Assembly (NCBI GenBank): GCA_964623775.1
Contig: CAZUVH010000002.1
Coordinates: 110,454 to 174,453, forward strand
Source: an uncultured Candidatus Saccharibacteria bacterium
GTDB lineage: Bacteria > Patescibacteriota > Minisyncoccia > Phycocordibacterales > UBA2100
Direction of reading: 5' to 3'
DNA: 64,000 nucleotides
Numbering within the stretch: position 1 is the stretch's first letter; every line of letters starts with the position of its first letter. This document shows, one piece after another, positions 2,691-61,513 of this stretch. The position numbers were made by a program, and so were the translations under genes. Below the pieces are notes generated by a model that saw nothing but the letters and a program-made list of their open reading frames with translations, ran no database searches and was not told the origin of the DNA.

Positions 2691-3884
2691 TTAGTCGCCG
2701 ACGTTGATCCGAATCACGTTTTCAATCGTACGCTCTCCTTTTTGTGTCTCTTCTCCCTCAGATTTCTCGTCGCTTTCGTGTGTGTCAGAGTTGCCAGCTG
2801 AGGTGTCAGATGTGAAATCGATATTTGCGGCGCGAGCGTTATCGTGCAGATTTATCTGCACCTTCAGACCAACTCTCGTCTCCTCGGTCGTACGGATCGC
2901 CTTTTCCAAATCCTGCAACACCCTCGATTGATCGCTCTCAGTCATACCTTTTGTTTCGATAGTGATTGTCGCTTCTGTCGTACTCGCCCTCTGTTGAAAG
3001 CGAGCATAAGTGGAGGTGCCAAGCTTGTTTTTTTCTTTCGTAGCGAGCGTGCGCACCCCCTTCAGTCTCTCCGAGAGTTTCTTCTTCTTTTCGGTCACTT
3101 TCTTTTCGAATGCATTGGTATCGCTCATCACTTTCGCTGCAGTGCTACTGGCAGCCGCTACCGTCGCCTTTTCTACATCACCTCCCTTACTACCTGCTCG
3201 CGAGGCGCGCGCGCTTTCAGCCTTTTTTTGCACGTTGGACAAAATGGGCTTGATCGCCTTGGAGACATCAGGTAACTCGGTACTCAAGGTGGTGAGTACA
3301 TTCGCGTGTGCGACAAGGGATGCCTCGAGGGTGGATTGGGCATCTGCAATAATCTCAGTGTTGTCAGGCGCACCAGAGAGCACCGCAACGCGCTTCTCGA
3401 AGTCATTGGCCGACGCATCGATGAGCGATGCGATTTTGTCGCTCGCATACGGTGTCAGCTCTCCGCGTGCCGCGAGGATCTCGGCCTCTTCGAGACGGCG
3501 CTCGGTCAATTCCCTACTGAATTCTACTTTTTCAACATCGGAGAGCGCCAGCGCTCCTTCGAATTTTTCATTGATACTGATTTTTACGGGATAGAGTACA
3601 TCGCCCGGCAAGGCTCCTCCAGCGGCGTACGCGGTACCGACGCCAAATACAAGCACAAGCGCGAGCGTCGCTGTCGCAAAACCATGGGAACCGACATAGC
3701 CAAAAGCCGCCGTATCGATCGCGTGCATGTACTCTGCCGCCCGTATATGGAACGGCACCTTGAGTGGATGCTCCTTCATGAGGAGCTCAAGCTCCTTACG
3801 CATGACAAAACGCTCTCTCTCCGAGAGTCGCTCATTTTGCAAAGCATCAAATATTTCCTTGATTTTTTTCTCCTCCATACGCAC
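2691..3884 (-). CDS. membrane-anchored DUF5667-like protein (anti-sigma-factor-like architecture)
   Basis: Charged cytoplasmic N-terminus, single TM (LALVLVFGVGTAYAAGG), then LPGDVLYPVKISINEKFE motif typical of DUF5667 and a long low-complexity Lys/Glu/Ser-rich tail. Confidence 0.5.
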   Translation of the reverse strand: MRMEEKKIKEIFDALQNERLSERERFVMRKELELLMKEHPLKVPFHIRAAEYMHAIDTAAFGYVGSHGFATATLALVLVFGVGTAYAAGGALPGDVLYPVKISINEKFEGALALSDVEKVEFSRELTERRLEEAEILAARGELTPYASDKIASLIDASANDFEKRVAVLSGAPDNTEIIADAQSTLEASLVAHANVLTTLSTELPDVSKAIKPILSNVQKKAESARASRAGSKGGDVEKATVAAASSTAAKVMSDTNAFEKKVTEKKKKLSERLKGVRTLATKEKNKLGTSTYARFQQRASTTEATITIETKGMTESDQSRVLQDLEKAIRTTEETRVGLKVQINLHDNARAANIDFTSDTSAGNSDTHESDEKSEGEETQKGERTIENVIRINVGD

Positions 3885-5578: not shown

Positions 5579-6181
5579 TCACTTCAGCATACCCGAGTCA
5601 CTTGATGGCGGATCTTTGCGCATTTTACCCTTCAATCGTTCAATGCCGCGGTGGATACGGACGGAAACGACATTTTCGGTAACGCCGAGTGCTCTTGCTA
5701 TTTCTTTGGGAGAGAGTTCGTCCATATATCGCATGGTGATGACGACTCTGTAACTCTCGTCCAGTTCATCTAGAAGCTTGAGTGCTTCTTTGAGTGCGGG
5801 TGTATCGAGCGGTGCTCGTATTGATTCATCGCGCACCTCAAATCCATCGTCCTCCATCATCGCGTCGAGTGATGAGGATTTCTTGCGGCGCGAGCCGTCC
5901 ACGATTAAATTGTTGGCGACACGGTAAAGAAAGGCGCGGATGTAATCGATTTCTTTGCCTTCCGACATATAGAGCCATGTGCGACTAAATGTCTCTTGCG
6001 CAATATCTTTTGCTATTTCTCGATCACGCACTCGCAGGAGGCAGTGACGAAAGAGTGCGTCCGCGTGCTCGTCATGAGCCGCGAGGAATTCCGCCTCACG
6101 TTTTTTGATCCATCGCTCTTTTGGAGATGGTTTATGGATACCCATATACGTACAAACACGCTTACGCGCGCTTAGAGACAA
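5579..6181 (-). CDS. RNA polymerase sigma-70 family, ECF-type sigma factor
   Basis: Region-2 motifs (FRHCLLRVRDREIAKDIAQETF) and region-4 HTH (SPKEIARALGVTENVVSVRIHRGIERLK); true start may be the internal ATG at 6145. Confidence 0.8.
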   Translation of the reverse strand: MSLSARKRVCTYMGIHKPSPKERWIKKREAEFLAAHDEHADALFRHCLLRVRDREIAKDIAQETFSRTWLYMSEGKEIDYIRAFLYRVANNLIVDGSRRKKSSSLDAMMEDDGFEVRDESIRAPLDTPALKEALKLLDELDESYRVVITMRYMDELSPKEIARALGVTENVVSVRIHRGIERLKGKMRKDPPSSDSGMLK

Positions 6182-6196
6182 CTATACATTATCGGC

Positions 6197-7219
6197 CTAT
6201 GCTGTCTCCATTTCCCTGCCGTAGAGACCTTGCGATGCAAGGGAGTTCATCTGCATGCGGAAAAGAAAGGTCATCTGTGCATCGAGTACATTTTCCGGTT
6301 TGCCCGCCCACTTTTCGAGTGCGGCGTTTTGCAGCGCTCTGCTGTAAGAGAACGTGATGGGCCACGGATGCGGCCCGCGCTCAACTACAGCACTGAGATT
6401 GTCCGTCGCACTGATGTCATCCTGCCCCCCCGAGAGAAAAACGATGCCTGGAAGCGTGGGGGGGACTACTTTTTTGAAATGCGCAATCGTCGCTTCTGCG
6501 ATTTCTGCAGCCGTCTTTTTCTCTGTACTCTGTGCGCCTGGAATCACCATGTTGGATTTGAGGATCACCGCCTCGATCACAACTCCGGCCGACTTCAGCT
6601 CCTCAAAAAGCGCCGTCTGCATCCGCTCGGTAGCCTGCCTGCACTGATCCATTGTATGCGCACCGTCCATAAGTACTTCCGGCTCTACCATTGGCACGAT
6701 TCCGGCCTCCTGACAGGCCTTTGCGTACGCAGCGAGGTCCTTCGCGTTCTGACGCATATTGGCGTCGGTCGGCGTGCCGCTCGGGCTAATCGTGATGACT
6801 GCGCGCCATTTTGCAAAGACAGCTCCCATCTGCGCATATTCTTTCAATCTCAGAGCGAGACCCTCGCGACCCTTGGTAAGCTTCTCAATCAATGAGCCTG
6901 GCATGTCGATGGTGCCCTGATCTACTTTGATTCCCGGCATGATACCCACGTCTTTGAGAACCTTGAGAAATGGGGTACCGTCCTGTGCATTTTGTCGGAA
7001 TGTCTCATCGAAAAGAATGACGCCCGTGATGTAATCGCCGATGCCCGGCGTACGGAAAAACATCTCCCGGTACGCGCGACGATTATCCTCGGTGTTGGCT
7101 ATGTTGAATTTTGCGAATCGTTTTTCTATCGTATTGGCGCTTTCATCTGCTGCGAGAATACCTTTGCCGGGCGCAACGAGCGCGCGAGCAGTACTCTTCA
7201 GTTTTTCGACATCTGGCAT
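6197..7219 (-). CDS. fba: fructose-bisphosphate aldolase, class I (eukaryotic-type)
   Basis: GILAADES..., IPGIKVDQG, LSGGQ motifs; near full-length alignment by eye to class I aldolase. Confidence 0.9.
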   Translation of the reverse strand: MPDVEKLKSTARALVAPGKGILAADESANTIEKRFAKFNIANTEDNRRAYREMFFRTPGIGDYITGVILFDETFRQNAQDGTPFLKVLKDVGIMPGIKVDQGTIDMPGSLIEKLTKGREGLALRLKEYAQMGAVFAKWRAVITISPSGTPTDANMRQNAKDLAAYAKACQEAGIVPMVEPEVLMDGAHTMDQCRQATERMQTALFEELKSAGVVIEAVILKSNMVIPGAQSTEKKTAAEIAEATIAHFKKVVPPTLPGIVFLSGGQDDISATDNLSAVVERGPHPWPITFSYSRALQNAALEKWAGKPENVLDAQMTFLFRMQMNSLASQGLYGREMETA

Positions 7220-7251
7220 ATGGTCAATTATATACCCTGCACACTACCCAC

Positions 7252-7824
7252 TCACTGATCCTCTGTGATTTGCGTATCCAAAAAACCGAGTGTGCTTTGC
7301 TGGTAGAGTGGCAGGGTAGCGATGATCCGGTGCGTAATTCCGAATTCCTTTGACTCATCGACGCTCATGATCTTGCCGCGCCGGAGCATTTGCGCCACTA
7401 CCTCAGTGTCATTGCCCGTCTCTCTGGCGATAACAAAAATGAGCTCCTGCAGCTCACGTTTGAATATCGCGATCGCCTCTTCGTGCGCATGCACAGGCGC
7501 GGTCGGGTCGAGAATTGTGTATTTGCCTTCGCGGAAAATAAATTGGCAGTTTTCGAGCGCCGTGCGCGTCTTTCCTGCGAGAAAGGTGGTCGCAGCTGCA
7601 GTATCCAATTCGCCAAAAGCGATCGTCTCCACCTCGATCGGGAGTGCCTTCAGGTATGTGTACATGTTGATGCCGGCGTCGATTTCGCCACTCATTCCAC
7701 CTGAGGCGATTAAAAAGCGAAGACTTTTTACAGGCTTGGAATACAAGTCCTCATTGATCGTGCGAATCGATTCTTGTACCACTTTACGCTCCAGTAGTCC
7801 GGTGAGTGCGTGCCAAATTTCCAT
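7252..7824 (-). CDS. ClpP-family (peptidase S14) homologue with apparently substituted catalytic Ser/His (ClpR-like)
   Basis: Collinear with ClpP over about 180 aa (e.g. ARETGNDTEVVAQMLRRGKIMSVDESKEFGITHRII vs ClpP C-terminus) but GxAASMG -> GELDTAA and MIHQP -> FIFREG. Confidence 0.55.
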   Translation of the reverse strand: MEIWHALTGLLERKVVQESIRTINEDLYSKPVKSLRFLIASGGMSGEIDAGINMYTYLKALPIEVETIAFGELDTAAATTFLAGKTRTALENCQFIFREGKYTILDPTAPVHAHEEAIAIFKRELQELIFVIARETGNDTEVVAQMLRRGKIMSVDESKEFGITHRIIATLPLYQQSTLGFLDTQITEDQ

Positions 7825-8535: not shown

Positions 8536-8607
8536 TGGACCGGCGGGGGATCGAACCCCGGACCTCCTCATTGCAAATGAGGCATTCTACCACTGAACTA
8601 CCGGCCC
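8536..8607 (-). tRNA. tRNA-Ala (anticodon TGC), CCA not encoded
   Basis: Minus-strand cloverleaf GGGCCGG-TA-GTTCAGTGGTAGAAT-G-CCTCA-TTTGCAA-TGAGG-AGGTC-CGGGGTTCGATCCCCG-CCGGTCC-A; G3:U70 alanine identity pair; 3' end followed by CAA. Confidence 0.85.
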
Positions 8608-25346: not shown

Positions 25347-25928
25347 ATGTCAAAAGGCGTGACTATGTTTCTTATTCTCCTTGCACTGATTTTTGGCGGA
25401 ATCGCCGGAGTGCTCGGTGGTCAGGTCTATTACGACTCGAAGAGGGTACAGACACCACAAACCGAAGAACGACAATCCTGGGAACTTCGACTCGAGCAGC
25501 AAAGAAAAGTTGCGCGAGTTAAACATGCGAGTGAACTCGGATTGCCGGCTGACGCTACTGACGAGGCTATCGAGGCGGCCGAAGCAAAAGCTGCCGAACG
25601 GATACGCATAGCAGATGCCGAGAGGCTGGGCCTTCCCCAAACAGCGACAGCCGAAGAAATCCGTGAGGAAGACGAACGCCAAGAGGATATGAAAAGTCGT
25701 GGCTTGCCCGCTGCAACGAAGGCGGAAGAGGCCTACCTCGCCGATGAACTCCTCAAGCGTGCAGAGGTCGCAGAAAGTCTGGGTCTTCCGGCTCATTCTT
25801 CATGGGAGAAGATCGAGGCAAAGAAAAATTTTGGGCTTCGAAATCTGGCCGGGCGTCTTGGCCTCTCACCGGAAGCTTCACTGGATGCAATCGAGATTGA
25901 GCTCGTTCGTCGCCAATCCAAGAATTGA
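25347..25928 (+). CDS. membrane-anchored protein with tandem LGLP-containing repeats
   Basis: N-terminal TM (MFLILLALIFGGIAGVLGG) followed by 4-5 degenerate about 27-aa repeats (..LGLPxxATxEEI..). Confidence 0.5.
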   Translation: MSKGVTMFLILLALIFGGIAGVLGGQVYYDSKRVQTPQTEERQSWELRLEQQRKVARVKHASELGLPADATDEAIEAAEAKAAERIRIADAERLGLPQTATAEEIREEDERQEDMKSRGLPAATKAEEAYLADELLKRAEVAESLGLPAHSSWEKIEAKKNFGLRNLAGRLGLSPEASLDAIEIELVRRQSKN

Positions 25929-25972
25929 ATTTCAACGCACAAATCCCGTCACCGACAAACGTGGCGGGATTT

Positions 25973-27076
25973 TTATATATTTTCCCGTACTAATATCCGA
26001 GTCGCTATCGCCGTCGTGATTGGTACCGCAAGTACAAGGCCGATAGAGCCGATGACCGCGCGCACGATCTCGGTCGCAAAGAGTTCACGATTGAGCGCCA
26101 TCGCTATACCACCCTCGCCAAATCCGTAGAAAAGGAGGAGGAGCGGAAGGGATGCGCCCACGTACGCAATCGCGAGAGTGTTTACGAGCGCACCGATGTG
26201 CTCGCGTCCGATACGCACGGCCCGGCGATACACTTCCCTGCGAGAAAGATGCTGTCCCGCAGACTCAAGCTCTTCTACCGACACCGCTTGTCCGATCGCC
26301 GCGTCGTAGAGCACGCCGAGCGTACCGATGAGAATACCGCCGATCAAAAGCCCGGCGAGATCGAGCGCGCCACGCGTATTGAGATTGAGATACGTCGTCT
26401 CTTCGGCGGTAAATCCGCTCAGATATGTAAACGGTATAGCCCAGTACGCGAGCGCTCCCGTGAAGATGACGGTCGTCACCATGCCGAGTACGGCGGTCGA
26501 CGTGGTCTTATTGAATCCATGTGTCACATACGAACCAAGTACAACAATGATCGAGGACACGCACACGGAGACGAGTATGGGTGAGTACCCCTGAAGCACG
26601 CCAGGCAGCAACATGAAGACAATAAAGAAGAGACTCCCAATCAACGCGATGAGACCGCGAGCACCCTGCCAGCCACCGAAGATAAGGACAACGGCGACGA
26701 ACATCGCAACGAGGAACGCGAGTTGCGGGAGACGGTACGGCTCCGACACCGTGTAAAAATCAGTGCCATCGAGATCACTCTTGGTGTGGGTGAGGTAAAA
26801 AATCTGTCCCGCTTTCATGTTGAGAAAGTCGTTTTCAATATCTATGACCTTCCCTTTCTCGGGACCGTCAATTATTTCTACCTTGATTGTTTGATAGGAG
26901 GTCTCTACATCTGTGCCGGGAATTTGGCGCCTTTCTTCGGAAATCACCTCAAGAACCTTGCCTTTCATCGTTACAACCGAATCTTGTGCTAGCTCCTGGG
27001 CTCCCGCCATATGCGGCGAGAGAGCTGAGAGCAGAATGCAGAACCCGATGAGGAATCGTTCGAAAGTCACGCTCAC
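25973..27076 (-). CDS. YibE/F family membrane protein
   Basis: Signal/anchor, soluble N-domain, then multi-TM region typical of YibE/F. Confidence 0.65.
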   Translation of the reverse strand: MSVTFERFLIGFCILLSALSPHMAGAQELAQDSVVTMKGKVLEVISEERRQIPGTDVETSYQTIKVEIIDGPEKGKVIDIENDFLNMKAGQIFYLTHTKSDLDGTDFYTVSEPYRLPQLAFLVAMFVAVVLIFGGWQGARGLIALIGSLFFIVFMLLPGVLQGYSPILVSVCVSSIIVVLGSYVTHGFNKTTSTAVLGMVTTVIFTGALAYWAIPFTYLSGFTAEETTYLNLNTRGALDLAGLLIGGILIGTLGVLYDAAIGQAVSVEELESAGQHLSRREVYRRAVRIGREHIGALVNTLAIAYVGASLPLLLLFYGFGEGGIAMALNRELFATEIVRAVIGSIGLVLAVPITTAIATRILVRENI

Positions 27077-27888
27077 ACTATATCTCGGACAACCCGATCT
27101 TGAAATACGATTTCTTCATGAGGCGGTTCCTCGTGAGGCAGATACGTAACGAGTAGAAACATGAGCACAATACCGATGATGAAGTAGAAAAAGTGTCTTA
27201 AATAGTGCGCTGACGTATGTGCAGAATTGAGCGAGTGCGGGATGAGATCGTGAAAAACTATAATCAGGTACCCGCCGACCGAGAGGCCGAGGAGCGGTAC
27301 TTCCAAGTATTCAAATTGATCGAGTAGAAAATACGCGCCGATCGTACCTATGAGTATCGTTGATGAGGAGAGGAAATTGTATACAAGCGCTCGCGTCACA
27401 GAGAGTCCCGACTGACGCAACACGAAGAACTCTGAAATTTCCTGCAAGCTCTCATGCAGGAGAATACTGAAGGTCGTCGCCATACCGACAATGGGCGAAG
27501 CCACAAATGAAGCAACGATAACAACACCGTCGCCGATATTGTGAATACCATCACTCACGAGTACTCGATTCGCATCGAGGCGCATATGCTGGTGATCAAG
27601 CGCGCCAGCGTCGTGGTGGTGGTGAAATTGTGGGATATAGCGAAATCCGATAAGCACAACCACCGCACCTATCGCTATCCATGGAAGGCCCGCGGCAAAT
27701 GAGCCCGCGTGCTCGATGATTTCCCGCGAGAGATTGAACGCAATAACAAGAAGGACGCCTGCGGCAAAGCTGACAAAGAAGTGAAGATTGCGGTCTATAA
27801 AAGGGCCGGCGATTCTCCACGTGACGAGCTTGCCCGAGAGTGATACGAGCATGACGAGAAGCGATGCGAGAAGTACGGTGACGAGCAT
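27073..27888 (-). CDS. ZIP family metal (zinc) transporter
   Basis: HNIGDG and HESLQE / HDLIPH motifs, His-rich loop (QFHHHHD); overlaps neighbours by 4 nt at both ends (operon). Confidence 0.75.
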   Translation of the reverse strand: MLVTVLLASLLVMLVSLSGKLVTWRIAGPFIDRNLHFFVSFAAGVLLVIAFNLSREIIEHAGSFAAGLPWIAIGAVVVLIGFRYIPQFHHHHDAGALDHQHMRLDANRVLVSDGIHNIGDGVVIVASFVASPIVGMATTFSILLHESLQEISEFFVLRQSGLSVTRALVYNFLSSSTILIGTIGAYFLLDQFEYLEVPLLGLSVGGYLIIVFHDLIPHSLNSAHTSAHYLRHFFYFIIGIVLMFLLVTYLPHEEPPHEEIVFQDRVVRDIV

Positions 27889-27890
27889 AC

Positions 27891-28403
27891 CTATTTAGTG
27901 GCGCACGAATTGCATGTGCCAAAAAATTCAAGCGCATGCGTATTGATCGCGGCAAATTTCTTTGCACTTTTCAGTACCTTGGATTCGACACGTTCGCCGA
28001 TGCATTCCTCCACATCTTCCATGATCCCGCAGTTGTTGCAGACAACGTGATGATGATGGTGCCCATGCAGCATTTCATAGTGCGCTCCACCTTGGCGGAG
28101 ATCACTACGAGAAAGAATCCCGGCTCTCGTGAGGGCCTCCAAAGAACGATATACGTTGGTCTCATCGAGGTTGCCTGTAATTCTTGCGGTGATCTGTGGC
28201 ACCGACAATGGGTGTCTCGCGCCTTTTAATATCGACAAGAGTTCCAGACGCCCCTCAGTTGAATTGAACCCATGATCACGAAGTGCGGATTGAAGGCTTT
28301 CCCGATCCGCTCCCTTGTAGAATTTTGACCGTTCCTTACGAAAAAATTCCCTTGTTGTCTTGAGATTTCTTTCAAAGGCTTTAATTGTCCGTTGCGCTCT
28401 CAT
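27891..28403 (-). CDS. Fur family transcriptional regulator, Zur-like by context
   Basis: Winged-helix N-domain, HGHHHHHVVCNNCG...C..C metal sites; first gene of operon with ZIP transporter. Confidence 0.8.
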   Translation of the reverse strand: MRAQRTIKAFERNLKTTREFFRKERSKFYKGADRESLQSALRDHGFNSTEGRLELLSILKGARHPLSVPQITARITGNLDETNVYRSLEALTRAGILSRSDLRQGGAHYEMLHGHHHHHVVCNNCGIMEDVEECIGERVESKVLKSAKKFAAINTHALEFFGTCNSCATK

Positions 28404-28428
28404 GAAAGCAGTGTAGCGTACGCAAGCC

Positions 28429-28497
28429 AAAAATGCAAGTTTCTTGCATTTTTGAAACCCTGGGGTAGTATGCCGCAATTGCAAGAAACTTGCATTT
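28429..28497. promoter_or_regulatory. two palindromic operator-like sites (AAAATGCAAG-TTT-CTTGCATTTT and TTGCAAG-AAA-CTTGCA) in the divergent promoter region
   Basis: Perfect 10-3-10 and 6-3-6 inverted repeats sharing the TGCAAG/CTTGCA core, about 46 bp apart, flanking a TAGTAT -10-like element. Confidence 0.55.
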
Positions 28498-28525
28498 ATT
28501 ATCAAGATACCTCGTAGTACTTCAT

Positions 28526-29011
28526 ATGCGTACATCCTTACTGTATTCGTTCATTATCATTGGTACGTTTCTCCTCGGCATAACGCCGGCCGTGTACGGA
28601 CAGTCCAATATCCTGTCTCCTCGCCTTGTGGTGAGTAAACCAACACAACCCTCTGAAAGCCTCGCGCTACCAGGTGCACTGCATGTCCCCTTCACGACAG
28701 TGGACCTGACTGCTCGTAATACAGACATCACAGTGCACAGTATTACAGTGATGCGTACAGGCCCTGCTGTCGATGCTATATTCGATGAAATTCTACTTAT
28801 TGATGATTCAGGGGAAGAGCTTGGTGGCGGCTCACTCGACGCCGATCACCTTGTTCGATTTACCGAGCCAATTTTCATTCCGGTCAATACAACACTCCGT
28901 ATAATCGTGGCCGCAAACATTGCGGATGAGCTCGCCGAGTTTGATGGCCAAAAACCGTCGCTCACAATCACCGAGATCAGCGCCACTGGCTACACCGAGG
29001 TAAGTCTCTGA
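28526..29011 (+). CDS. secreted hypothetical protein, divergent from the Zur-like operon
   Basis: Signal peptide (LLYSFIIIGTFLLGITPAVYG); start overlaps second operator copy; no known domain. Confidence 0.5.
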   Translation: MRTSLLYSFIIIGTFLLGITPAVYGQSNILSPRLVVSKPTQPSESLALPGALHVPFTTVDLTARNTDITVHSITVMRTGPAVDAIFDEILLIDDSGEELGGGSLDADHLVRFTEPIFIPVNTTLRIIVAANIADELAEFDGQKPSLTITEISATGYTEVSL

Positions 29012-58857: not shown

Positions 58858-60594
58858 TTACCTCATCCGCAAGCTCCACACGGCACCGTTGTGGATGTAC
58901 ATGACTTTGTCATCCCAATTGGCGAGTGCCATGTCGGTTGCAACCTGCTTATCCTTGATCTTGTTCACCGTACCGCTTCGCGGCACGAAGATCACAAGCT
59001 CGCCGTCTTCGACGATGGTAGCGCACACACCTTTTGGCAGTATCGCGATGTTCAGATCGGCATTGTCCGTGCCTCCCTGCCACAGCGTATAACTGCTGTA
59101 ATCAGCGCTGAAGCTGAGCTCGAATTTCCGGAATGCACCGGTTTTGTCGATTCCTGCGAGTGAGACGAAGCGGTTGCCCGCTTTGCCCGCAAGCAGCTTT
59201 ATGCCATCGAGCTCTCGCACACGCACCGAGATACAGGCACTTTCGCCAAATGGCAGCACGAGGAACTGTGCGCCGAGCGCATCCTGAACTCCGACGCCGT
59301 CGTACCATTTTGTGGACTGCGGCGAGAGAATCTGAGTGCGCCGTCCGATCGAAAGGAGCGGGCGACCCACCTGCAGAAGCTGCAACTCCATCAATTCGCT
59401 TTCGGCGACAAGGAACAGACGGTTTTCAAAACGCACCGTCTTGTAACCGTTTTGCGCGAGCGGAAGCGATTGCTGCACACGCGTGCGATCGTCGATGAAT
59501 GAGTATGCCGGTTTCCCGAGGACCCAGTCAGCGAGCAGCCATCCATTTTCGACTTTGACGACTTCGCCGTTGCCCGAGCTCATGCGTCCGATATCACGCT
59601 TGGTGGTGAGATCGACCACGATACCCGAGGCAAGAAGCACCGCACCGCACGGATAGATCCGTACGACAGCATCGCCTGCTTTTTCGAATATCTTTTCGAA
59701 CACGAGCGCTCCTGTAGCCGTCGTCGTGACCCTGAGAGTTCGGGCTGCCGCAGGAATTGCTGCGACGCCCTTATCGTAGGGTGATGGCGGCACTGTGCGC
59801 ACGCCTTTTTCAAATGTCGCTTCGTACCAACCGAGGAGGGCATTCGGAACGCATTTGAAATCGCGTACTGCCGCGTTGAGCCCTACACCATTGTGGAAGA
59901 CTGAGGCGTTCGCTTTCATTCGCGCTTCCATATCGCCCGGCTTAAATCCGCTGAGTGATCCCCGGTACGGATGGATGCCCGTGAATATCTGGAAGGTCAC
60001 GATTCCCCATGAGAACCAGTCAGAGAGTTTCGTGTATCCATTTGTATGCCAATCTTTGATGGACGGCATGATTGCTTTCGGACCAAATCGGCCGACAGCC
60101 CATGAATCCACATCAATGGCACGCGGCTCCGGGCCGTTTTTGCCTGCGAGGAACGCAATCCAGTTGAGCTCATTGGCATCGACCATGACCGCATTTCGAT
60201 CATGCGCGAAGACAGTCGTCTCGTGCATACGAGCGACAAGTGTATGTGCTTCACCATCACCAAACTTTTCGCGATTGCGAAACGCGTTGGTGAAGATGCG
60301 AGGCAGTGCCTCACCTTCCGCCCACGGCATGTAGATGCCGATCGGCTTACCCTTACCATCAGTCACGACGCCTTCCGGTGCCATGATGTACTGATGCTTG
60401 AGAGGCTTCAGCAGCTGGATCTTCTCCGCAATGCCGTCGCGTCGCATCTTGTCGGGATCAGTGTAGAGCTTAATGCTCGTACCCAAAGAGCGGTAGACCG
60501 ATGCTTCTCCGCCGCTCGCGACATAGTCGCTCGGGCGAAGTGTCAACGGTCCACGACCTTCGAGTTCTACTTTCAGGTTTCCACTTGGAGCCAT
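58858..60594 (-). CDS. atypical protein-kinase-like protein with about 330-aa C-terminal domain
   Basis: Gly loop ASGGEASVY, Lys in SIKLY, DANELN catalytic-loop-like, IDVDSW (DFG position), DWFSWGIVTFQIFTGIHPY (subdomain IX-like); C-terminal region of unknown fold. Confidence 0.55.
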   Translation of the reverse strand: MAPSGNLKVELEGRGPLTLRPSDYVASGGEASVYRSLGTSIKLYTDPDKMRRDGIAEKIQLLKPLKHQYIMAPEGVVTDGKGKPIGIYMPWAEGEALPRIFTNAFRNREKFGDGEAHTLVARMHETTVFAHDRNAVMVDANELNWIAFLAGKNGPEPRAIDVDSWAVGRFGPKAIMPSIKDWHTNGYTKLSDWFSWGIVTFQIFTGIHPYRGSLSGFKPGDMEARMKANASVFHNGVGLNAAVRDFKCVPNALLGWYEATFEKGVRTVPPSPYDKGVAAIPAAARTLRVTTTATGALVFEKIFEKAGDAVVRIYPCGAVLLASGIVVDLTTKRDIGRMSSGNGEVVKVENGWLLADWVLGKPAYSFIDDRTRVQQSLPLAQNGYKTVRFENRLFLVAESELMELQLLQVGRPLLSIGRRTQILSPQSTKWYDGVGVQDALGAQFLVLPFGESACISVRVRELDGIKLLAGKAGNRFVSLAGIDKTGAFRKFELSFSADYSSYTLWQGGTDNADLNIAILPKGVCATIVEDGELVIFVPRSGTVNKIKDKQVATDMALANWDDKVMYIHNGAVWSLRMR

Positions 60595-61442
60595 CAGACG
60601 TCTCCTTCTTGGTGTTCGACGCGCACCATCGCATAGGCGATGTCGTCGAGCGGCCCTTTGCCTACCTTGCGCGCGTCTTTAACAAACGCATTCAGGCGTC
60701 GTTTAACGAAGACGCCTTCGACACCTTTGAACGCGAGCAGTTGCAGCACTACGTCTTTCCAATCCACTCCCTCGACCTGCGTGACGCCGTCGCTGAATAC
60801 AGCGACAAATGAGACTTGTTCCGGTGACAGATTCAAGGTAACACCCTGAATTCCCGCCGCGACCGTCAATTCACTTGCGAATGACTCTCCGGTCGATTTA
60901 TTCCACGTTTCCCATCTGAGCGCCTGCTTATATGCACCACCGTGAGTCTTTATGAATGACTCGTATCCGTCGGTACTGTAGGCAGGATAGAGAGGAGTAT
61001 TGTTGGTCCAATCGAAACGATGGAGAAACATCTCCCCATTCCTAAAAATGACCGCAACGACACCGTCGCCGCGAACATTTACAACGCATGTCTCTTGTGA
61101 CATGGCCACATACGAACACGTGGCAAGCATGTCACTCGTCTCAAGCTGAAGCTTGTTTTTCACAGCGTTCATAGTGCTCTGCTGATGGTCATTGATGAAC
61201 CCTGCCGCATCAAGAGAGAGTAAAAACGATTGCCAATTCTTACGAATCGCCGTTGCCGTCGTATGGGTCACTATTCGCGCACCCACATCGGTGTGTCCAC
61301 CACTTGAGCACCCGTCGGAGACGATCGCGTATGCGACGCCATCGTGAATTCCTGAGAGCGAGTGATCCTGACATGGTTTGCCGGAGATCACGTGATGGTG
61401 ACCGATCAGGAAGTGATCATCCGTATGGAATTTCAACTTCAT
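60594..61442 (-). CDS. PP2C-like phosphatase
   Basis: CQD..., VSDGCSSGGHTD (DGxGG-like), VRGDGVV, VFSDGV motifs in PPM order. Confidence 0.55.
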   Translation of the reverse strand: MKLKFHTDDHFLIGHHHVISGKPCQDHSLSGIHDGVAYAIVSDGCSSGGHTDVGARIVTHTTATAIRKNWQSFLLSLDAAGFINDHQQSTMNAVKNKLQLETSDMLATCSYVAMSQETCVVNVRGDGVVAVIFRNGEMFLHRFDWTNNTPLYPAYSTDGYESFIKTHGGAYKQALRWETWNKSTGESFASELTVAAGIQGVTLNLSPEQVSFVAVFSDGVTQVEGVDWKDVVLQLLAFKGVEGVFVKRRLNAFVKDARKVGKGPLDDIAYAMVRVEHQEGDV

Positions 61443-61513
61443 TGCATTTCCCCTTCTTCAGAAAAGAATAAGGGAGGGAGCTGTGCCCCCTCCCCGTGGT
61501 TGCCGGCCATCGA

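Follow-up and report, generated by a model that had tools for sequence, protein, structure and literature searches.

The closest described relatives of the system reported here are the Fur-family regulators Zur, Nur and Mur. Characterised Zur boxes are AT-rich 7-1-7 or 9-1-9 palindromes, with TCGTAAT-N-ATTACGA in Bacillus, TGAAAAT-N-ATTTTCA in actinobacteria and GTTATA-N-TATAAC in proteobacteria. Zur operators overlap the core promoter (review PMC8000910). For Streptomyces Nur, the box has a 6-5-6 layout (PMC2691836) and the published consensus tTGCaa-N5-ttGCAA (PMC3919588), and Mur of the Rhizobiales and Rhodobacterales is a Fur-family repressor whose MRS is a 19-bp palindrome unlike the classical Fur box (PMC1698941). 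Here, we analyse a 64-kb stretch of contig CAZUVH010000002.1 from an uncultured Candidatus Saccharibacteria bacterium (64,000 nucleotides; hereafter the window), in which a Fur-family regulator gene heads a minus-strand operon with genes for a ZIP permease and a YibE/F membrane protein, and in which two palindromes lie between this operon and a divergent gene for a secreted protein. A preliminary description of the window had read the locus as an autoregulated zinc-uptake operon, and this reading is supported by the putative operators of orthologous regulators and by their ZIP or zinc-type importer cargo. We consider it probable that the locus encodes an autoregulated module for metal uptake in a Patescibacteria-type bacterium, responsive to zinc and consisting of a Zur-like repressor, two operators, ZIP and YibE/F.

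The intergenic palindromes and their distribution

The gap between the minus-strand regulator operon and the plus-strand secreted-protein gene (28404-28525) contains two exact copies of TGCAAG-N3-CTTGCA with a start-to-start spacing of 46 bp (Table 1). The two palindromes, their shared core and their distance of about 46 bp are all present as first described: site A, AAAATGCAAG-TTT-CTTGCATTTT at 28430-28452, is the perfect 10-3-10 palindrome reported and grows further to a perfect 12-3-12 palindrome, and site B has the reported perfect 6-3-6 core, TGCAAG-AAA-CTTGCA, within flanks that are only imperfectly symmetric. Exact matches to TGCAAGNNNCTTGCA number two in the 64 kb, compared with 0.00 in 100 dinucleotide shuffles. 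With a position weight matrix (PWM) built from 12 sites of other genomes, the window sites being excluded, A and B scored 26.6 and 27.6 bits, respectively, and the next-best match in the window 15.6 bits; the maxima of 30 shuffles had a mean of 11.1 and a highest value of 18.7 bits. Matches to a loose pattern with two mismatches elsewhere in the window fell within the shuffle range and are therefore not regarded as regulon members. A PWM match at 61428-61450 (15 bits, one good half-site), at the start of a PP2C phosphatase gene (60594-61442, minus strand), is likewise in the shuffle range and probably due to chance.

Two sets of related loci were compared with the window. The close set, taken from the contigs of nine regulator homologues, comprises 10 independent loci including the window, with identities of 37-67%. 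The distant set (L001-L160) comprises 160 loci among the matches listed by collection scans with HHHH..CxxC patterns; its proteins are mostly 27-45% identical to the regulator and at most 52% identical among the matches listed. Recognisable relatives of the regulator number about 30 in a collection of 5.8 billion proteins, the closest being 55-67% identical, and a library clustered at 50% identity returned just 10 clusters at E<=1e-30. Gene order is kept in the close loci, where OTCase, BacA, PAP2 and DAGK are followed by the regulator, ZIP, YibE/F and LysRS; ZIP adjoins the regulator in 8 of the 10, and the source names of the YibE/F homologues are Kaiserbacteria, Paceibacterota and Parcubacteria. 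In all 10 close loci a palindrome lies 34-46 nt upstream of the regulator start codon, and pooling the 14 non-redundant sites yields wAAAYGCAA-N5-TTGCRTTTw as the consensus (information content, 22.6 bits).

The same association extends to the distant set, in which the PWM at a threshold of >=17 bits found 32 matches in the 200 nt upstream of Fur homologues (32 kb) against 16 in the remaining 934 kb, a 58-fold higher density, with 0-2 matches in total in shuffles. The motif-bearing loci are labelled as Saccharibacteria, Parcubacteria, Kaiserbacteria, Levyibacteriota, 'Patescibacteria group' and Verrucomicrobia, together with one metagenome-assembled genome of Methylomirabilales. Several of the matches found elsewhere sit at the starts of operons whose last gene is the regulator, the order being motif, znuA, znuC, znuB and regulator in L010 and motif, ZIP and regulator in L019, L016 and L028. 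Thus, the motif accompanies this Fur-family lineage, standing at the promoter of whichever operon contains the regulator. When the recognition helices of motif-bearing homologues were set against those of homologues lacking the motif, no residue emerged as a clean determinant of specificity; there was only a trend for Asp or Asn at position 80. Position before orthologues and enrichment among distant homologues together support a role for the palindromes as operators of the adjacent regulator.

The effector metal and rival explanations

Sequence models alone leave the effector metal unsettled, and the genomic context is clearer. The cargo of motif-bearing regulators is a ZIP permease at most loci or else a ZnuABC-type ATP-binding cassette (ABC) importer. 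At L165, where an orthologous regulator heads an ABC importer, the binding protein matches YcdH at 1.7e-68 and AdcA at 9e-61, whereas its matches to the manganese binders MntC and PsaA, at 1e-32 or weaker, are about 30 orders worse than those to the zinc binders; it also has a His/Glu-rich loop, HEHEHEHE, and a His where manganese binders have Glu. The His-His-His ligand set is found in 18 of 21 neighbouring binding proteins, the other three having alignment gaps, and none has Glu at ligand 3. At the motif-bearing loci, eight of nine binding proteins are His-His-His and Glu occurs in none; the remaining one, from L005, is truncated. Provided that the sites are operators, the cargo and its ligands make zinc the likely metal.

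The regulator carries HHHHH-x2-CxxC and a C-terminal CxxC, and H116-H119, C122, C125, C164 and C167 are invariant across 27 sequences. H116, H118 and H156 (invariant) and E140 (at least 90% conserved) align with H80, H82, H118 and E101 of Mycobacterium tuberculosis Zur, which we take to be metal ligands in that protein. H117/H119 and D130 are also conserved in the regulator family. Its neighbours in the PDB are mixed, with M. tuberculosis Zur/FurB the best match (3.5e-12) in a list that includes Vibrio cholerae Fur, Helicobacter pylori Fur, Nur (3eyy, 1.7e-10) and PerR (2fe3).

Several observations weigh against a zinc-responsive module of this kind. The preliminary description had looked to a motif scan to define a regulon, and although the motif is enriched across genomes before regulators of metal-import operons, the PWM found no further sites or regulon members beyond A and B in the 64-kb window. 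One relative, L161, has as its operator a perfect 24-bp palindrome, AAAAACGCAAGTACTTGCGTTTTT (3142-3165), in which the gap between GCAA and TTGC is 4 nt, not 5; its half-sites are 1 bp closer than in every other site, a difference that we cannot explain. The regulator is without the Asp/Cys ligand pair of the canonical regulatory site in Zur (D62/C76 in M. tuberculosis, D65/C79 in Streptomyces coelicolor): D62 and C76 align with S98, a position that varies in the family, and L112. It has instead an invariant Fur-type Glu, E110, five residues before the His run and aligned with Fur E80/E81 in the V. cholerae Fur alignment. An NCBIfam search with the regulator returned no Zur model at E<=0.01; the best models were Fur equivalogs, whose 54-59 bits fall far short of their cut-offs (146-220), and PerR and Irr models were also below threshold. 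ZIP permeases can transport iron, manganese or cobalt besides zinc. A generic sigma-70 scan called neither of the promoters proposed below in the intergenic region, and promoter rules are not established for Patescibacteria.

Manganese or iron is the main alternative to zinc, under which the same architecture and autoregulation would serve a sensor of the Mur or Fur type, and ZIP and YibE/F would import Mn2+ or Fe2+. The sensing site is Fur-like, with E110, H117/H119 and D130 kept and the Zur pair absent, the leading NCBIfam models are Fur equivalogs, if all far below cut-off, and broad specificity is possible in the ZIP family. The alpha-proteobacterial Mur box, moreover, is likewise of the TGCAA-N5-TTGCA type. 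Set against this, the ABC binding proteins beside motif-bearing regulators have the His-His-His set and never the Glu of the manganese and iron type, the L165 protein with its His/Glu-rich loop sides with the zinc binders, and MntH, Feo and siderophore genes were not seen in the loci examined, and we judge a manganese or iron sensor to be unlikely. Far less probable is that the palindromes are not the regulator's operators at all but belong to a different transcription factor, form a repeated element or a terminator-like hairpin, or arose by chance. A simple scan does flag site B as terminator-like, seeing a 6-bp stem and behind it a T-rich tail, and the case for binding by the Fur-family protein is one of sequence comparison. 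Yet site B has nothing upstream to terminate, since transcription of both flanking genes leads away from it, and the terminator reading is rejected. Across phyla, moreover, the motif goes with the Fur-family gene regardless of its neighbours, moving to the operon start where the regulator comes last, its position is fixed relative to the start codon, and exact matches are absent from shuffles.

Two further sensors deserve even less credence. A Nur-like, nickel-responsive regulator would account for a motif, YGCAA-N5-TTGCR, that is very near the Nur box, and Nur is among the PDB neighbours; but two of the three nickel-site histidines are replaced (H70 by R99 and H72 by D101), and no related locus has a nickel transporter or superoxide dismutase gene, the cargo being ZIP or zinc-type ABC importers. 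The least probable reading is a PerR-like peroxide sensor that stands beside metal transporters by chance. Its NCBIfam match is weak (E=9e-11, 42 bits against a cut-off of 180), the PerR structure in the PDB list scores below those of Fur and Zur, and the regulon context has conserved metal importers as cargo and no catalase, peroxidase or Dps genes.

Promoters, genes and candidate regulon members

A start-codon-anchored regular expression (TTG[CA]NN, 16-18 nt, TANNNT, 4-10 nt, ATG) matches in all 10 independent close loci, and in each the -35 hexamer falls inside the operator. The layout observed in 10/10 is a -35 of TTGCNN, a spacer of 16-17 nt, a -10 of TAnnnT and then 6-9 nt to the ATG. 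The -35 coincides with the left half-site in six loci and with the right half-site in four, including the window, which gives two classes of operator-to-ATG distance; since the -10 ends 6-9 nt before the ATG, leaderless transcripts are predicted. These promoter assignments rest on conservation and denote predicted rather than mapped starts. Operator A holds the proposed -35 hexamers of both divergent promoters. The TAGTAT that the preliminary description placed between the two sites is indeed there, but on the plus strand, and the better reading makes it the divergent gene's -10 rather than one for the regulator operon.

Two sites spaced 45-46 bp apart are found in the window, L165, L167 and L175, all four of which have a closely spaced divergent gene. 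On the opposite strand, all four have a -35 of TTGCAA or TTGCAT in the regulator-proximal site, a spacer of 16-17 nt and a -10 of TAGTAT, TACATT or TACTAT, with the distal site 6-8 nt further on. By analogy with the layout of L165, L167 and L175, the suggestion that the operators are also placed to control the divergent secreted-protein gene is supported, and co-regulation of this gene, as a candidate regulon member, is plausible.

In the zinc-responsive module that we favour, a dimeric Fur-family repressor, Zur-like in function, would be encoded first, with ZIP and then YibE/F behind it. When metal is sufficient, the metal-loaded repressor would bind both 23-bp operators; bound at operator A, it would block the two back-to-back promoters by covering the -35 hexamer (TTGCAT) of each, and at operator B it would further obstruct the start region of the divergent transcript, just past TAGTAT. 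When metal is scarce, the repressor would leave the DNA and both transcription units would be expressed, the regulator operon as a leaderless transcript from a promoter whose -10 lies just 6 nt before the ATG. What the comparison shows directly are the sequence features, their conserved position and sequence at orthologous and distant loci, and the zinc-type character of the adjoining transporters; from these we infer the binding, its sense (repression as opposed to activation), zinc as the effector and the transcription start sites. A bolder proposal, which we put forward only tentatively, is that the family forms an undescribed Zur lineage common to Patescibacteria and Verrucomicrobia, which might sense zinc without the Asp/Cys pair, use a Nur-like 6-5-6 operator and leaderless promoters, and have YibE/F as a membrane component of zinc acquisition.

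Table 1. Features of the locus (window coordinates, except for the last row, which refers to L170); both promoters are proposed from conservation
Feature	Coordinates	Strand	Details
Putative operator A (regulator-proximal)	28428..28454		CAAAAATGCAAG-TTT-CTTGCATTTTTG; core TGCAAGTTTCTTGCA at 28434-28448; 26.6 bits
Putative operator B (distal)	28476..28498		CAATTGCAAGAAACTTGCATTTA; core TGCAAGAAACTTGCA at 28480-28494; 27.6 bits; 8 nt past TAGTAT
Proposed regulator-operon promoter	28410..28438	-	-35 TTGCAT 28438-28433 in operator A; 17-nt spacer; -10 TACACT 28415-28410; 6 nt to ATG at 28403
Proposed divergent-gene promoter	28444..28471	+	-35 TTGCAT 28444-28449 in operator A; 16-nt spacer; -10 TAGTAT 28466-28471; 8 nt to operator B
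Fur-family regulator, 170 aa	27891..28403	-	PF01475, E=1.4e-17, 64 bits against a cut-off of 23, residues 45-160
ZIP permease, 271 aa	27073..27888	-	PF02535, E=9.5e-17; weak ZupT match
YibE/F membrane protein, 367 aa, last gene of the operon	25973..27076	-	PF07907, E=3e-65, profile positions 2-240 of 241
Divergent ORF (open reading frame), 161-aa secreted protein with signal peptide	28526..29011	+	Start supported by alignment
GC-rich hairpin then T-run, 3' boundary of the operon	25941..25972	+	Between the convergent gene 25347-25928 (+) and the YibE/F end
Putative operator of YibE/F in L170	5357-5379		4 nt before probable ATG

At the gene junctions, the 4-nt overlap that had been claimed for both is found between ZIP and YibE/F (GTGA, 27073-27076), contingent on the GTG start of YibE/F, but not between regulator and ZIP, where the TAG stop (27893-27891) is followed by 2 nt and then by the ZIP ATG at 27888. 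The ZIP translation has an FHHHHD loop and the motifs GIHNIGDG and LLHESLQE, which are the conserved ZIP metal-binding motifs of transmembrane helices 4 and 5. An upstream ATG at 28535 (a 214-aa ORF) was considered as the regulator start and rejected because the operators would then fall inside coding sequence and because the alignment of homologues starts only at MRAQRTIK. From the start adopted, the Fur domain of the regulator is preceded by about 33 aa that form a basic N-terminal extension (MRAQRTIKAFERNLKTTREFFRKERSKF; window 28300-28403, minus strand). This extension is also seen in two relatives (entries L161, 3189-3260, read from the upstream ATG; P0003; P0033), and the L161 regulator start had been annotated 24 codons too late.

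The divergent secreted protein has no Pfam or NCBIfam match, no link of it to metals was found, and it has only four homologues among the 5.8 billion proteins; its AlphaFold2 (AF2) model (pLDDT 73.5) is a predicted beta-sandwich with only weak matches, to carbohydrate-binding-module and jelly-roll folds. In syntenic relatives this gene is missing from the corresponding place, where DAGK, a CbiA-like ATPase or another gene abuts the regulator. At the other end of the operon lies a convergent 193-aa ORF (25347-25928, plus strand) that contains 'LGLP' repeats and matches no Pfam family; it ends at a strong terminator, a hairpin with a T-run, which abuts the YibE/F stop codon. The T-run of this hairpin (25941-25972) is on the plus strand only, so that termination of the minus-strand operon there is uncertain. 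Rfam at gathering thresholds found a single tRNA (8536-8607, minus strand) in the 64 kb, and no riboswitch or other known RNA.

YibE/F recurs in these operons: 7 of the 10 close loci have it behind ZIP or the ABC importer, and it stands next to the regulator in distant loci L009, L025, L050, L081, L087 and L096. In L170 and L171, where a gap separates ZIP from YibE/F, a second full-strength operator (28.7 bits) lies 4 nt before the probable YibE/F start. YibE/F also recurs in L162, L167, L172 and L173, and L165 has two copies (5849-7327) behind the zinc ABC importer. The protein has invariant H186, D258, E269, H293 and E336 in predicted membrane helices (AF2 pLDDT 81.6); a search for a solved structural relative found none, and no description of its function was found in the literature searched. 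A 2026 screen placed two YibE/F-like genes among Staphylococcus aureus fitness genes in blood (PMC13227979).

Other neighbours recur as well. A CbiA/MinD/ParA-like P-loop ATPase gene is divergent from the regulator in L165 (1972-2715), L167 (3180-3911) and L175 (2972-3916), on the minus strand in each, and its start codon comes 5-9 nt after the distal operator. The ATPase is also present in L002, L050 and L081, and one possibility for it is a metal-related NTPase outside the COG0523 family. In the operons of L168 (5108-5557) and L172 (5547-6032), a gene after ZIP or YibE/F encodes a small MliC-like protein with a weak match to PF09864, and the two proteins are 41% identical to each other.

The circuit type, a Fur-family repressor that autoregulates a metal importer, is textbook, and the advance is incremental, not conceptual. 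What is distinct, as far as sequence can tell, is the operator class, the atypical composition of the sensing site, the conserved design of the predicted leaderless promoters and YibE/F as a new candidate regulon member. How Patescibacteria regulate their genes has hardly been explored, and of the papers listed in a literature search joining 'zinc uptake regulator' with Patescibacteria-type terms, none has both. The phylogenetically footprinted operator comes with a promoter model for these bacteria, namely a -35 within the operator, a TAnnnT -10 and a leaderless start, and the PWM could define zinc regulons across thousands of uncultured genomes. For YibE/F (PF07907), a widespread family of unknown function, a role in zinc acquisition is a testable hypothesis, and the conserved regulon of the tentative Zur lineage, should that lineage be real, would reveal that function. 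The 6-5-6 TGCAA/TTGCA operator type, finally, would not be confined to the nickel regulator Nur.

Comparison with Zur, Fur, Mur and Nur

Like Zur of M. tuberculosis (Zur/FurB), S. coelicolor and Bacillus subtilis, the present regulator is a predicted Fur-family dimeric repressor encoded with zinc-import genes, its putative operator overlaps the core promoter, and the structural Cys4 site is kept. The second His-rich site of M. tuberculosis Zur (H116/H118/E140/H156 here) is also kept, and that protein is the best PDB sequence match. Unlike Zur, the regulator has neither the Asp/Cys regulatory ligands nor an NCBIfam Zur match, its candidate regulon includes YibE/F, its promoter is predicted to be leaderless, and its operator is YGCAA-N5-TTGCR rather than any of the characterised Zur boxes.

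With classical Fur it shares the Pfam family, the fold, HHHxH-x2-CxxC, the Fur-type Glu E110 and, as proposed, autoregulation; the operator, by contrast, is unrelated to GATAATGATAATCATTATC, and the regulon context has no iron-acquisition genes. The likeness to Mur is that of a Fur-family repressor of an ABC importer of the TroA/ZnuA superfamily, sometimes linked to its own gene. The alpha-proteobacterial MRS is of the TGCAAAT-N-ATTTGCA type, which would fit TGCAA/TTGCA half-sites with an N5 spacing. Mur, however, has the manganese-type SitABCD or MntH as its cargo; here the binding proteins are of the zinc type (0/21 with Glu) and no MntH was seen.

The nearest operator is that of Nur. The preliminary description had likened the palindromes to Fur-family boxes, which is apt for the 6-5-6 arrangement YGCAA-N5-TTGCR, similar to the Nur box, and not for the classical 7-1-7 or 9-1-9 Fur and Zur layouts. 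Geometry and sequence of the operator are nearly the same as for Nur of S. coelicolor, a resemblance of the operator only. For the proteins, the Nur sequence was confirmed against 3eyy before alignment to the family: the recognition-helix residues Y56/R57 are kept as Y85/R86, and C93/C96/C133/C136 align with both CxxC pairs, but H70 and H72 correspond to R99 (R in 19/20) and D101 (D in 19/20), and only H126 is kept, as H156. Its candidate regulon also differs, consisting of ZIP or zinc ABC importers rather than sodF or nikABCDE, as does the phylum. Thus, this regulator family appears to work on a Nur-like operator but is not Nur.

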